Assembly (NCBI GenBank): GCA_003345555.1
Contig: PRDJ01000001.1
Location: forward strand, 60,001 to 92,000
Length of the DNA stretch: 32,000 bases
Source: Candidatus Thorarchaeota archaeon
Lineage (GTDB): Archaea; Asgardarchaeota; Thorarchaeia; Thorarchaeales; Thorarchaeaceae
Direction of reading: 5' to 3'
Part shown: positions 17,063-24,718 of the stretch, one piece after another
Numbering within the stretch: position 1 is the first letter of the stretch
Layout: the number at the start of each line of letters is the position of its first letter
Position numbers and translations under genes: made by a program
The notes under the pieces: generated by a model
The model's database searches: none
What the model was told of the DNA's origin: nothing
What the model saw: only the letters and a program-made list of their open reading frames with translations

Positions 17063-20000
17063 ATGGGCTCGGACGCGCGAAACTCCCTTCTCAGGAGATT
17101 GGCGGAATTGACACACGGGAGCAACAGTGACAAGATCCGTGATTTTGAGTTGACCTTGGAAGATTCAGCTCGGCTGGCAGAATGCTTCAACTCGTTCGAT
17201 GATTCAGACAGCTGGCCGGGCGGCTTCACCGGAGGAATTCCCTTTACAGCTGAACGGGTCCTAGAGGACAAGACAAAGAGGAACGACATCAGGACTCTCG
17301 TGGCTTACATAGGTGACAGGATAATAGGACACTGCAATGTTGCTCAAGCAGAGATGGATCCCGAAGCGGCATACGTAGGTACTCTTGGTGTCGACCCGAA
17401 GTATCAGGGTCAAGGATTCGGGAAAGCAATGTTGATCGAAGCTGCTGAAACGGCGGCCCGCCTAGGAAAACGAAGAATCGACCTTCACACATGGCCCGGC
17501 AACATCAAGGCCATGCCTCTCTACAAACGTGTCGGATACAACTGGGTGCCGAGAACCAGGGTTCTGATGGAATCGTATATCCCGGGGATTCTGAGTTTCC
17601 CGCTGTTTGCTGAGTTCTTCAAACGCTATACCTGGCATGAAGTCCTTACCAGAGAGATACATCAGGTTGTTGATGACATAGAGCAAGACGGGCTTGGTGT
17701 GTACAGATACTTCTTCAGAGGGCAGAATGATGATTCACTCGACGTCACTGTGGATCGCGAAGCCAAGGGAATCTGCAGCTTCAAGCTTGTCTTTGATCAT
17801 CATGAGATAAGCGCTGGCTCGAGGCAAGCCTCACCCATAGGATACATTGGTTACGGGCAAGTGGCTGTGCATCTCATAATCTCCAGCAATGACCAACATG
17901 AATTGCCTGTAACAGTGAGCGTCGTTCCCACGCAGGATTTGTCGGTTGAGTTGACAGGCGACATGACGGGAATGGTTTCGGCGGGACGCCAGTTTGTTTT
18001 GGGGGGATTCTACGGAATTCCTGAAACAGCCGAGAAAGTTGACCGCGAGAAAGACCCAACGACCAAAGTCAGGGCGCAAGCCGCTTGGGAAATCACTTTG
18101 GGAGATACAACATTCAATCTGTACAGCGGGCTCATCCCGCATCAGGCAATCACGATTTCTTCCAATCCTGTCTACCCTTGCATTTCTCCGGGTAGCCAAC
18201 CCAAGATGGAGATCGTTCTTCACAATAATCTCATCAGAGTCGTCAAGGGTGAGGTGGTAGTAAGCCCAGCTTCCGGGAAGACCATGTGGTCCCGGGTTAC
18301 TGAATTCGAATTGGACCCGGATGAGACAAGGGGAGTTGCGCTACAAGTCGCGACGGCGGCAGAAGACGACAATAGTGTCCTTCCATTGCTTGTTTCCGTC
18401 TTTGTCTTGGAAGACTCCGAAAAGAGGGCGGTGAATCGAAAGACGTTCAACATCCCGGTCTTGGGAGTCTCAGGAGCAGTCGTGTACGAATCGCTCGACG
18501 ATTACCTAGTCATCGAGTCCGAGACTTTCAGGTACACGATATCCAAAACACCACCGATGAGCTTTAGGTCGTTTGAAGACAAGACGCAACATAGGGTCGC
18601 TAGAGGCTTTTTCCTTCTTCCTTCTGTAGGATACCCATTCCCTTCGGGCGGCAGTGAGTGGTCTCGCAGAGCATTCGACGTGACTCTAGCGAACAACAAG
18701 GATTACGCCGAAATCCGGCTGGAAGGAGATTCAATTGAGAAGACCGGTGCAAGGCTTACAGCTATATACAGAGCCTACCCAAGCCGTCAGTATCTTGAGA
18801 TTATCAACGGGATAACTAATGTAGGCTCTTCAACACTCACCAACTTGGGAGTGCAAACCCAAGGTTGGTTTGAGATGGCTGGGACTAGGATGTATGTCCC
18901 CATTAGAGGAAGCATATACGAGCTCGGCTCGATAGACTGGACTGGTGACAGGCAGGTTCCGGACGAGCCAAGCGCCTATCATGAATCGTGGGCTGCCGTG
19001 TGCAGTGCTGAAGGTGGATTGCTTGTAGGCTATGCTTGGGACGCTGACGGGCTAGTCAAGGTTGAGCCTCGTCGCTCGCGGAGGGTCACTAGGACCGAGT
19101 ATAAGCTCCCCGACCTCGAACCCGGCGAGTCGAGCGAGAAAACGATCCTAAGGATTGTGACAGGCCTAGGGGGATGGAGGAAAGTGCGTTCACTCTGGGC
19201 TCAGCTAAATAACAGGCCCGAGCCCGATATTGATGTGCGGGGGCCGAGGTCTGATCTAGAGTTCAGTGTAGTTCCCAAGTCGTCGAGCTGGGCTGCTGGA
19301 TCCGGGGCGCCAATCATGATTGACCGATTACAGCAAAATGAGATGGAGATTCGAGTCAGCGTCCTCCATGCTGACTCTATCTCGGGGCAGCTTAGTGTCA
19401 CTTTGCCTTCAGGTCTTCTCATCAATAAGAAGAGCAGCGTCACTTTCGACATCAAGCGGCTCAACATAGATACACCCTTCACTGCACCGGTAACAATCAC
19501 AGCGATCAAAGGGGGCGAGTGGATCAGGATTGGCGGCGAGGCCCTGTTCCGTTTCGAGAATAGAGTGGCACGAATTCCATTAGTTGCCATCCTGTACGAT
19601 TCGACTGCGTCCGTTGAAAGGTCGACTGAAGTTGTAGAAGGAAACACTCTGTATCAGCTGAAGACCGCTGGGAACGGAATTTCGGTCTCGCCTGAGTATT
19701 GTGCCAGCCTGGTTCGACTCAAGCTGTCAGACAATGACAATGTCTTCCAGGACCTATTCCCTCATGCTGACCCGTTCTTGTGGACCGATCGACACTACTC
19801 TGGTCTGAATCCTATCATAGGAAGATGGGGAACTTGGGATTGGCAATCCGGCCTACTCTTGGAGAAATGGTCTGTATCTGAGGCTAGAGAAGGCCCTTGG
19901 GTAGGCTATGAGATCAAAGCTATCTTAGAACATTGCCCCGGTCTGAAAGGTATGCAGTTCAGCATAAAGCACATGATTCTCAAGGGCACGCCGATAGTGC

Positions 20001-20413
20001 GCTCGGACATCAATGCCCGCAACGGGACGAGCCAGTCGAAAAGGGTTACGATGGGACTCCAGGGCATCGTGAGACTGAAGAACCACCCACAGAGTGTCAT
20101 ATACGCAGTGATTAATAACCGGCGAGTCGCCTACGAACCCTCGATGTACAGAACTGATGTTATACCCGCACCCGAAGAAGGCTGGGCAGTTTTCAAAGAG
20201 CCGGAAACGGGTTCAGTTCTTGGGGTCGTAGCCGACTGCAAGACAGATGAAGTGCTCAGTCTGGAGAATGTGAACGAGAATGCTCAGTGGGTCCGGCTTA
20301 TGGGTCTCAGAGAGTTGGGGCCCGGCGATAGTGCTTCAATAGGATGTTACTTCGTCACAGCCAAGAATGTGGACGATGTTGTGATGATGAAGAATCTAAC
20401 TTCGATAACGTAG
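17063..20413 (+). CDS. Large protein (about 1100 aa) with N-terminal GNAT acetyltransferase domain and uncharacterised beta-rich body
   Basis: GNAT motif A (LGVDPKYQGQGFGKAML) and the NIKAMPLYKRVGY motif in the first ~170 aa. The true start may be TTG 17108, which follows AGGAG. Confidence 0.8.
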   Translation: MGSDARNSLLRRLAELTHGSNSDKIRDFELTLEDSARLAECFNSFDDSDSWPGGFTGGIPFTAERVLEDKTKRNDIRTLVAYIGDRIIGHCNVAQAEMDPEAAYVGTLGVDPKYQGQGFGKAMLIEAAETAARLGKRRIDLHTWPGNIKAMPLYKRVGYNWVPRTRVLMESYIPGILSFPLFAEFFKRYTWHEVLTREIHQVVDDIEQDGLGVYRYFFRGQNDDSLDVTVDREAKGICSFKLVFDHHEISAGSRQASPIGYIGYGQVAVHLIISSNDQHELPVTVSVVPTQDLSVELTGDMTGMVSAGRQFVLGGFYGIPETAEKVDREKDPTTKVRAQAAWEITLGDTTFNLYSGLIPHQAITISSNPVYPCISPGSQPKMEIVLHNNLIRVVKGEVVVSPASGKTMWSRVTEFELDPDETRGVALQVATAAEDDNSVLPLLVSVFVLEDSEKRAVNRKTFNIPVLGVSGAVVYESLDDYLVIESETFRYTISKTPPMSFRSFEDKTQHRVARGFFLLPSVGYPFPSGGSEWSRRAFDVTLANNKDYAEIRLEGDSIEKTGARLTAIYRAYPSRQYLEIINGITNVGSSTLTNLGVQTQGWFEMAGTRMYVPIRGSIYELGSIDWTGDRQVPDEPSAYHESWAAVCSAEGGLLVGYAWDADGLVKVEPRRSRRVTRTEYKLPDLEPGESSEKTILRIVTGLGGWRKVRSLWAQLNNRPEPDIDVRGPRSDLEFSVVPKSSSWAAGSGAPIMIDRLQQNEMEIRVSVLHADSISGQLSVTLPSGLLINKKSSVTFDIKRLNIDTPFTAPVTITAIKGGEWIRIGGEALFRFENRVARIPLVAILYDSTASVERSTEVVEGNTLYQLKTAGNGISVSPEYCASLVRLKLSDNDNVFQDLFPHADPFLWTDRHYSGLNPIIGRWGTWDWQSGLLLEKWSVSEAREGPWVGYEIKAILEHCPGLKGMQFSIKHMILKGTPIVRSDINARNGTSQSKRVTMGLQGIVRLKNHPQSVIYAVINNRRVAYEPSMYRTDVIPAPEEGWAVFKEPETGSVLGVVADCKTDEVLSLENVNENAQWVRLMGLRELGPGDSASIGCYFVTAKNVDDVVMMKNLTSIT

Positions 20414-20419
20414 GCAGGG

Positions 20420-23562: not shown

Positions 23563-23593
23563 GTTTAGGCTGGACCGAGCTAATCTGGTTCAG

Positions 23594-24718
23594 CTATGTG
23601 AAGTCTCGTCCAGTCAGTATTGCGACGAATGTCCCCTTGATGGTTACTCTGGTGTCTGCCAAATCGTGAAGGACTGCAAGAGTACTAGCCGATGCGGGCA
23701 GTACGTTGAGGCCTTCTTCTTCACGAAGGAGCCTGGAGAACTCCTGCATACGGGTATCTGATGCATAATCGGCGAACCCGTTCGTCTCATATATTGCATC
23801 AAGAGCTTCCTGTCCATCGAACGAATGCCAGTTGGTAAGTGGCTCGTTGAATTTTGTCTCCTTTACCTCGGTCCGCTCGAGATCCAACATCGTTCTGCTC
23901 TTCATCAGGAACGATTTGACTATAGGGTTGCCACGTCGAGTGCTTGTTGCGACCATCCTTGGAAGCTCGTCGATCTTGTGGGCCTCGTAGAGCTTCTTGA
24001 ATCCGTGATAGATACCAGCCAGCGTCGTGCCATTGCCTACTGGACAGAAGACATAATCCGGTGCTCGCCTCATATCCCTGTATATTTCATAGGCAATCTC
24101 TGCATAAGCTTCCAGAGAAACCTCTCTAACACCATCAAGACCCGGGTTTGCGTCGAACCAACCCTTCTCTTTGCAGACTTTCGATGAAAGCACAACGACA
24201 TCTTCGTATTGGCCTTCCTCGTAGTGTATCTCTGCGCCAGCATCCGTCATGCGTTTTACTCGGTCCTCAGGAAGATGGTATCCGGCTGGTATGTAGACGT
24301 GCGCAGGAACCTCGCATAGTTTCGCAGCCCAGGCAAGTGCCGTGCCGAAGTTGCCGCAGCTCGCGGCCGCAACAGCAGCTGCCCCTTGCGACTTCGCCAG
24401 AGATGCAAGTGCTAGGGCAATCCGATCCTTCTGTGTGCCGGTTGGGTTGTTGCCCTCGAACTTCAGAAAGAGACGTTCGACCCCTGAGTAGCGGGCGAGA
24501 TTGCGAGACTCGACAAAGGTTGTAGAACCGACAAAATCCTTCCACTTAATCTTGACGCCGTTTCTCTTTGGAACGACGGCCTCAGACGCCCCATCATCGC
24601 GGGGCGTATGTTTGCCTTCCTCACCTGACTCCTTTGACATCTTCTTTCCTATGCCCAGCTTTTCCATTCGGATCTTGCTTAGCGAGCTCGCGTCACCACG
24701 AGCATTGTCAAAATTCAC
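23594..24718 (-). CDS. Fold-type II PLP-dependent enzyme (threonine-synthase-like, probably not ThrC)
   Basis: PLP lysine in LKFEGNNPTGTQKDR, plus ASCGNFG, PVGNGTTL and PASA. The start could be 24718, 24667 or 24640. Confidence 0.82.
   Translation of the reverse strand: MNFDNARGDASSLSKIRMEKLGIGKKMSKESGEEGKHTPRDDGASEAVVPKRNGVKIKWKDFVGSTTFVESRNLARYSGVERLFLKFEGNNPTGTQKDRIALALASLAKSQGAAAVAAASCGNFGTALAWAAKLCEVPAHVYIPAGYHLPEDRVKRMTDAGAEIHYEEGQYEDVVVLSSKVCKEKGWFDANPGLDGVREVSLEAYAEIAYEIYRDMRRAPDYVFCPVGNGTTLAGIYHGFKKLYEAHKIDELPRMVATSTRRGNPIVKSFLMKSRTMLDLERTEVKETKFNEPLTNWHSFDGQEALDAIYETNGFADYASDTRMQEFSRLLREEEGLNVLPASASTLAVLHDLADTRVTIKGTFVAILTGRDFT

Follow-up and report, generated by a model that had tools for sequence, protein, structure and literature searches.

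What would an archaeon that is not expected to make peptidoglycan do with relatives of MurL and of the D-alanine-D-alanine (D-Ala-D-Ala) ligase Ddl? The question is raised by a candidate locus at positions 17063-24718 of a 32,000-nt stretch of Candidatus Thorarchaeota DNA (contig PRDJ01000001.1; this whole stretch is called "the window" below), where a sequence-only reading had seen five linked genes that could build and cap a small peptide or polymer containing a D-residue. The open reading frame (ORF) listing gives five ORFs there, and coordinates and family searches agree with that reading on their order: a big protein with a GNAT domain, a MurL-like PP-loop protein, a Ddl-like ATP-grasp ligase, a small GNAT and, convergent to these, a fold-type II pyridoxal phosphate (PLP) enzyme resembling threonine synthase (ThrC). 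The last four form a cassette that is a real, conserved and undescribed biosynthetic set, a variation on a ligase-plus-MurL theme. On balance, though by a modest degree, it is probable that these four genes, as a mobile cassette, direct the synthesis of a small amino-acid conjugate, N-acetylated and with an adenylated carboxylate, in which neither the ribosome nor a nonribosomal peptide synthetase takes part.

The linkage of the four genes is the foundation of this proposal. A scan over one genome per prokaryotic species returned 209 MurL-like relatives, and the best 80 loci were checked by tblastn. The ligase, GNAT and PLP genes lie beside the MurL-like gene in about 60 of these best 80 loci, in several phyla, so that neighbourhood and phylogenetic profiling, which had been suggested as a check, comes out in favour of co-occurrence. 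Carriers are found among Thor-, Hod-, Hermod- and Heimdallarchaeota, unclassified Asgard archaea, two clades of Bathyarchaeia and six Spirochaetota. Asgard archaea and Bathyarchaeia clade 1 have the PLP gene downstream and convergent; in Bathyarchaeia clade 2 (divergent or co-directional) and in spirochaetes (co-directional) it lies upstream. Two spirochaete contigs have the genes in the order PLP, MurL-like, ligase and GNAT, with 4-bp overlaps at 3/3 junctions. In nearly all cassette loci the small GNAT gene comes after the ligase gene, and the flanks are different everywhere. Among 61 sampled Asgard relatives, the MurL-like gene, a ligase orthologue (>500 bits) and a PLP enzyme at or near the cut-off of model NF004996 occur in the same nine genomes (9/61), while the remaining 52 hold none of the three; since kin are non-independent, this profile is given as a pattern and not as a statistic. 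Linkage of the four genes is far beyond chance.

The functional unit is confined to the MurL-like, Ddl-like, small GNAT and ThrC-like genes. The first GNAT gene (17063-20413, + strand), which the sequence-only reading had included, falls outside, as its relatives stand beside a TPR gene without any cassette. In seven Thorarchaeia relatives, the order MurL-like, ligase, small GNAT, convergent PLP, TPR and giant protein is kept, and the big GNAT gene is present in three of these seven loci and absent from four. On two other contigs, a spacer of only about 25-35 nt separates the stop of a big GNAT homologue (44-45% identity) from that of the TPR gene convergent to it, and in the window this same junction is occupied by the 4.3 kb cassette. 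The cassette is thus an insertion or deletion relative to the synteny of big GNAT, TPR and giant genes: it was inserted at the 3' flank of big GNAT here, or lost there elsewhere. In the source genus, the big GNAT stop is 6 nt ahead of the MurL-like start and one RNA-library contig spans the junction, so that read-through is possible; this still does not make big GNAT a member of the cassette.

Gene trees agree with the linkage. The ligase tree recovers the four major groups of the MurL-like tree as single clans and the PLP tree recovers three, which means that the genes travel together. Bathyarchaeia clade 1 is nested inside the Asgard radiation, and this placement suggests transfer of the cassette between phyla. 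Within one Bathyarchaeia clade, 27 species-level genomes have the cassette. Two contigs with bacterial labels (L046, Actinomycetota; L079, Krumholzibacteria) have cassettes that fall among Bathyarchaeia tips, and these labels are probably binning errors. On DPANN-type and some other archaeal contigs (L021, L097, L104), a gene resembling the radical-SAM enzyme lysine-2,3-aminomutase is followed by the Ddl-like and MurL-like genes, and the PLP gene is not present. With an aminomutase in place of the PLP enzyme, the constant core becomes the ligase and the MurL-like protein, and the gene for amino-acid supply is changeable. The L046 cassette is sister to that of a Bathyarchaeota bin from the same sample, and the rest of the L046 genome has a bacterial dcw cluster. 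An 803-residue MurL-like::ligase "fusion" (genome G023, L016 10880-11160) was rejected: a run of N (XXXX) removes the stop codon and the spacer is read through. No longer fused form of the two proteins was found, which is weak evidence, and prediction of a complex between them scored 0.16 against a mark of 0.32.

No murA-G, mraY or penicillin-binding protein (PBP) family was found among the larger ORFs of the window by family searches, as had been claimed. Mur_ligase_M was not found in the whole genome, which is 93% complete, and the control search was positive in 12 of 14 reference genomes; this whole-genome check, also suggested beforehand, supports the expectation that the organism makes no peptidoglycan. 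Alanine racemase (PF01168) has no match in the same 93%-complete genome, the Asp/Glu-racemase family has one gene there, and Glycos_transf_4 has one generic match only.

The Ddl-like ligase (21948-22943, + strand) is called as an ORF from TTG 21936, but its homologues begin at ATG 21948 (MRIAL...). It matches PF07478 (Dala_Dala_lig_C) with an E-value of 2e-31, and its matches in the Protein Data Bank are Ddl or Van in 37/37 cases, making these the nearest family by sequence. It is below the cut-off of every Ddl model (PRK01372, 184.7 bits vs 243; TIGR01205, 154 vs 246). In an alignment with E. coli DdlB, the catalytic residues that bind ATP and Mg or act in the transition state (K97, K144, S150, E180, E187, K215, R255, D257, E270, N272 and G276) are invariant, and S281 is kept as well. 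The determinants for D-Ala are changed: the GGxSxE motif is unrecognisable, E stands in place of H63, and Y216, which makes up a triad with E15 and S150 in the D-Ala site, is replaced by T (by W in the DPANN-type variants). Most members have an acidic residue aligned with DdlB E15, in a region where the alignment is uncertain. The family also has a 6-residue insert ahead of S281 and a motif of its own, EFxVEYDPPHT. Because the D-Ala site is altered while the catalytic residues are intact, the protein is predicted to be an active amide-forming ligase with substrates other than two D-Ala, which upholds the claim that it is no D-Ala-D-Ala ligase. It is the only Ddl-family gene of its host, in which no alanine racemase was detected.

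The PLP enzyme (23594-24718, - strand) matches PALP (E 2e-53) and passes NF004996, named "PRK06381 threonine synthase", with 365 bits against a cut-off of 266. Against the thrC equivalog model TIGR00260 it reaches 87 bits, below the cut-off of 167, and a separate canonical thrC on contig 39 of the host genome passes with 171 bits. Homologues align only from about residue 37-56 onward, and translation probably begins at an internal ATG near 24640-24667. The motif of the Schiff-base lysine, NPTGxxKDR, is kept; among solved structures the nearest kin, the short ThrCs of Aquifex (107 bits) and Thermus (91 bits), share the fold-type II PLP architecture. The asparagine loop for the substrate reads [ST]-C-G-N-[FY]-G in 61 cassette copies and S-T-G-N-T in ThrC; at the sites of Thermus T85, T88, N154, S155 and R160 this enzyme has C, F, D, G and S. 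Across the 61 copies C, F/Y and S are near-invariant (F/Y at the T88 site in 61/61, S at the R160 site in 55/61), and the host's own ThrC keeps Arg at the R160 site. By these marks the enzyme is best classed as a ThrC paralogue and not as the housekeeping ThrC. Among the 61 relatives NF004996 is passed only by cassette copies, and by none of 14 control genomes (0/14). "Threonine synthase" is therefore probably a legacy label of the cassette enzyme, and as a name for PRK06381/NF004996 it is probably wrong for this PLP family. In another genome of the same genus (G003), one of the nine with the cassette, the PLP gene (L010 12563-13686) is split in two overlapping frames; this is a frameshift or pseudogene, or else an assembly error.

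The small GNAT (23014-23562, + strand; 182 residues) matches PF00583 with an E-value of 2.8e-12. Its best NCBIfam matches are the streptothricin acetyltransferases Sat4/Sat3 (E 6e-9), far below cut-off.

The MurL-like protein (20420-21874, + strand; 484 residues) has no Pfam match, and its single NCBIfam match is a weak one to MurL (E 1.3e-4); the best member of its family reaches E 8e-12 against the same model. A stronger relation appears when profiles are compared: with hhalign, a 39-member family profile matches four actinobacterial MurL proteins (419-474 bits to NF041275) with a probability of 98.5% and an E-value of 2.9e-15 over 288 columns, from ahead of the PP-loop to past the cysteine cluster. 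The family is about 60-65% identical between Asgard families and forms 314 representative clusters at 50% identity. Its invariant features are the SFGKDS PP-loop, GNE, P286-x-x-D289-Q290-S, E-P-L and R-Y, together with the cysteines of S-C342 and of W-C355-x-x-C358-x-x-C361 (a Zn-type Cys4). The PP-loop, (G/S)NE, SC and WCxxCxxC make up a core shared with MurL. In the ESM Atlas, clusters of the "MurL epimerase family" adjoin the protein, with a feature score of 0.97 and a template-modelling (TM) score of 0.76 over about 430 residues; PF26298 and PF26299 (MurL_N and MurL_epimerase_C) are present in 100% of the members of these clusters, and the models compared are predicted on both sides. The likeness may extend over the full-length predicted fold. 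By its profile and its predicted structure, then, the protein is a true but distant member of the MurL family.

The core itself is of the QueC type. In the AlphaFold2 model (pLDDT, the predicted local distance difference test, 91.5), the central domain (about residues 155-375) superimposes on QueC with a Z-score of 14.9 and a root-mean-square deviation (rmsd) of 2.8 Å over 190 residues, and on Cap9 with a Z-score of 13.8; for the two together, the rmsd is 2.6-2.8 Å over 175-190 residues. The top Foldseek match of the whole chain is QatC, and nitrile synthetase is also listed. QueC, Cap9 and QatC are PP-loop enzymes that adenylate carboxylates and have a Cys-bound metal site; like them, the protein combines a PP-loop with a C-terminal cysteine cluster, a putative Zn site. 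It differs from the QueC family in having no Pfam match (E < 0.01) and no match in the PADLOC defence families, so that the likeness lies in the fold only. It also differs by an extra N-terminal domain of about 130 residues and a C-terminal helical domain of about 110 residues, and no deazaguanine genes are nearby. By analogy with these enzymes and with MurL, adenylation of a carboxylate is predicted as an almost certain activity of the protein.

The MurL superfamily extends far beyond the enzyme of murein synthesis. Other Atlas clusters with the MurL fold are fused to Mur_ligase_M (Bacteroidota), form 794-residue proteins of the "creatininase family" (Thermodesulfobacteriota) or occur with DUF6395 (Bacillota), and one has phage members. 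The fusions of MurL to a Mur-ligase domain follow the same ligase-plus-MurL logic as the cassette. On contigs L025 (2439-5256) and L026, two MurL-family paralogues (458 and 485 residues) lie tail to tail after a seryl-tRNA synthetase gene and by a spermine-synthase-like gene, with no ligase nearby.

MurL depends on ATP and Mg, forms AMP and inverts in one direction only, from L to D (PMC5808125); it has been suggested that MurL adenylates the alpha-carboxylate (PMC8788868). In Xanthomonas oryzae and some actinobacteria, MurD2 and MurL form an alternative route to D-Glu in peptidoglycan synthesis (PMC5808125, PMC8788868): the ligase adds an L-residue, which MurL then inverts. The cassette mirrors this pairing of an amide-forming ligase with a MurL-family PP-loop enzyme, and activation of a C-terminal carboxylate from ATP to AMP is expected in both. 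It departs from MurD2/MurL in that the partner is a Ddl-type ATP-grasp enzyme and not a Mur ligase, that a PLP enzyme and a GNAT are added, and that the host has no UDP-MurNAc (uridine diphosphate N-acetylmuramic acid) pathway.

A pathway can be proposed from what was observed, namely gene linkage, homologies, intact catalytic residues and altered substrate sites. The ThrC-like enzyme would turn a substrate other than O-phosphohomoserine into a non-standard amino acid, by replacement at the beta or gamma position or by elimination. The Ddl-type ligase would join it to a second amino acid via an acyl-phosphate, the GNAT would acetylate a free amino group, and the MurL-like enzyme would adenylate the C-terminal carboxylate of the product. 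These last three steps may come in another order. A small capped peptide, already among the products considered in the sequence-only reading, is the most economical one; there is no sign of a polymer, of a cross-linker in the envelope or of a tag on proteins. After adenylation, ATP-driven, one-way inversion of the alpha-carbon of the C-terminal residue from L to D, by analogy with MurL, would be the most likely outcome, although a tentative one. It is possible, but well short of probable, that Asgard archaea, Bathyarchaeia and some spirochaetes have in common a pathway, independent of the ribosome and of nonribosomal peptide synthetases, in which a MurL-type, ATP-driven one-way epimerase gives a small N-acetylated peptide a terminal D-amino acid.

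If this were true, MurL chemistry would for the first time be seen beyond the making of murein, and for the first time in archaea. MurL is the only peptide epimerase known to be driven by ATP and to work one way, and studies of it have kept to the synthesis of bacterial cell walls. The literature consulted describes MurL relatives only from bacteria, plus some of low similarity in a fungus, cyanobacteria and an amoeba, and no description of an archaeal relative or of the four-gene cassette was found there. A MurL relative that works with a different kind of ligase, in hosts without murein, would point to an unrecognised class of small peptide metabolites. Their producers would be abundant and mostly uncultured sediment archaea, including Asgard relatives of eukaryotes. 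The four proteins, soluble and of average size, offer enzymologists a set that can be expressed and assayed.

Several points weigh against the proposed pathway. For all four proteins, every chemical step, the step order and the product are inferred. The D-residue posited by the sequence-only reading is plausible but tentative, as it goes back to distant homology with MurL: the MurL-like protein reaches 20.7 bits against the MurL equivalog model, whose cut-off is 700, and the invariant N-H-Q-W-S-K loop of MurL aligns with an equally invariant P-x-x-D-Q-S in its family. With this replacement, adenylation may be followed by a reaction other than epimerisation. Among solved structures, the nearest folds (QueC, Cap9 and QatC) yield amides or nitriles from the adenylated carboxylate, and not epimers. 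For the PLP enzyme, the comparison takes ThrC residues T88, N154, S155 and R160, which this enzyme does not have, as the phosphate site for O-phosphohomoserine. Most loci come from metagenome-assembled genomes, and some of their taxonomic labels are unreliable.

The last such point concerns transcription. A TATA-like box (TTATAAGT, 21909-21916, + strand, read from the sequence) lies about 32-40 nt upstream of the ligase ATG at 21948, and eight other Thorarchaeia loci have a comparable A/T box equally far from the ATG. This suggests that the box may be a promoter of the ligase gene and that the cassette would be read from more than one transcript in Thorarchaeia. The T7 run at 22955-22961 (+ strand), just past the ligase stop codon, could be an archaeal terminator, but it is not conserved in related loci, which makes such a role doubtful. 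Of the separate transcription units suggested earlier, the part that relies on the box is supported for Thorarchaeia and the part that relies on the T-run is doubtful. The spirochaete four-gene set is one overlapping operon, and for this reason separate transcripts in Thorarchaeia do not weaken the functional link. Scans for bacterial promoters and terminators gave results at chance level. In a wetland metatranscriptome, short contigs that are 96-98% identical lie on the MurL-like, ligase and TPR genes; as RNA libraries can contain DNA, they are only a weak hint of expression. RNA run X9 leaves the PLP gene, the GNAT gene and most of the MurL-like gene uncovered, which says nothing on their expression, as it is a small run of Logan contigs.

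In the main alternative, ligation takes place as proposed but the MurL-like enzyme passes the adenylated carboxylate to ammonia, an amine or an internal nucleophile, and the cassette would make a nitrile, a lactam or the amide of an N-acetyl-dipeptide. Such an outcome is rather unlikely, but it would have a parallel. The osmolyte N-acetylglutaminylglutamine amide (NAGGN) is made by a GNAT/ATP-grasp enzyme and a PP-loop amidotransferase (Ngg and AsnO), and the trio of GNAT, ATP-grasp and PP-loop enzymes in the cassette matches this logic. The amide- and nitrile-forming chemistry of the closest solved folds, with nitrile synthetase among the matches, and the exchange of the NHQWSK loop for PxxDQS speak for the same outcome. 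However, in sequence the family is nearer to MurL (by the hhalign E-value above) than to any QueC, and the TM score of 0.76 is to MurL clusters. The cassette holds no glutaminase domain or partner, and no glutamine amidotransferase such as NAGGN synthesis employs. The NAGGN synthetase model Ngg (TIGR03103) is unmatched by the cassette proteins; it matches only big GNAT, with 15.6 bits against a cut-off of 569. What the cassette shares with the NAGGN, bacilysin and tabtoxin clusters is thus the kinds of enzyme (acetyltransferase, ATP-grasp and PP-loop) and a small, ribosome-independent capped dipeptide as the expected product, with homology only at the superfamily level.

Bacilysin and tabtoxin are also the models for an improbable alternative, in which the product would be a "Trojan-horse" dipeptide antimetabolite. 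The PLP enzyme would make a toxic non-protein amino acid, the ligase would hide it in a dipeptide (as with TabS and BacD), the GNAT would protect the producer (as with Ttr), and the MurL-like enzyme would harden the dipeptide against peptidases. The patchy, all-or-none spread of the cassette and its behaviour as an insertion or deletion are as in accessory metabolism, and the nesting of Bathyarchaeia copies within the Asgard radiation fits as well. The small GNAT's best named matches, though weak, are to antibiotic acetyltransferases. These matches are, however, far below cut-off; inspection of the flanking genes revealed no exporter or regulator travelling with the cassette; and its presence in 27 species-level genomes of one clade looks more like core physiology.

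Salvage is more improbable still. Here D-amino acids or D-peptides from sediment necromass would be ligated and then converted one way to the L-form, in hosts that are sediment and wetland anaerobes with no alanine racemase found in the genome, and MurL-type epimerisation is indeed one-way (PMC5808125). Two ATP-dependent steps and an acetylation would nevertheless be uneconomical for catabolism, a PLP enzyme of the synthase type (or a lysine aminomutase in the variants) points to the synthesis of building blocks, and no transporter or peptidase is a constant neighbour of the cassette. A murein- or pseudomurein-like wall pathway, or unrelated housekeeping genes that are merely adjacent, is scarcely credible: two of the proteins do belong to families best known in peptidoglycan synthesis, but the genome has neither Mur_ligase_M nor alanine racemase and only the generic Glycos_transf_4 match, its sole Ddl-family ligase is without the D-Ala determinants, and linkage is kept across phyla despite changes in gene order, with an identical profile of presence and absence. 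Synthesis of a small N-acetylated conjugate remains the reading that we prefer.

The big GNAT protein that flanks the cassette is itself unusual. It has 1116 residues, with a RimI-like GNAT domain at residues 63-159; the other residues (about 930) match no Pfam family, and only 12 relatives were found among 5.8 billion proteins. Beyond residue 210 its AlphaFold2 model (pLDDT 73) consists of all-beta domains, and fold searches return only generic beta-sandwich or mutarotase-like domains, the beta-sandwich matches with TM < 0.2. No signal peptide is evident, and the gene always adjoins the TPR and giant TSP3-repeat genes. A bacterial "GNAT family" cluster of about 1000 residues has a predicted shape akin to it (TM about 0.5).

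Elsewhere in the window are unrelated genes, for a GHMP kinase, a lipoate ligase, an ABC ATPase, an M20 peptidase and MGMT, besides the TPR and giant TSP3-repeat proteins and a block of AOR, Fe-ADH, NMO-like and SCP2 genes (12146-16948, - strand). This block is syntenic 5' of the cassette in several Thorarchaeia genera. No Rfam family was found within 16000-26000, and searches of plasmid and phage collections gave no matches. Homologues bear the names of Thorarchaeota and other Asgard archaea, and the source DNA was also found in wetland metagenomes of two studies. The M20 peptidase gene (9943-11460) lies 5.6 kb upstream of the locus start, and on spirochaete contig L061 (2706-6670) genes for an M20 peptidase and for a DUF5058 protein stand, with two unassigned ones, upstream of the operon (7075-10908) on the same strand. 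M20 enzymes include N-acetyl-amino-acid deacylases and dipeptidases, and an M20 peptidase near the cassette may be a turnover enzyme or a coincidence.

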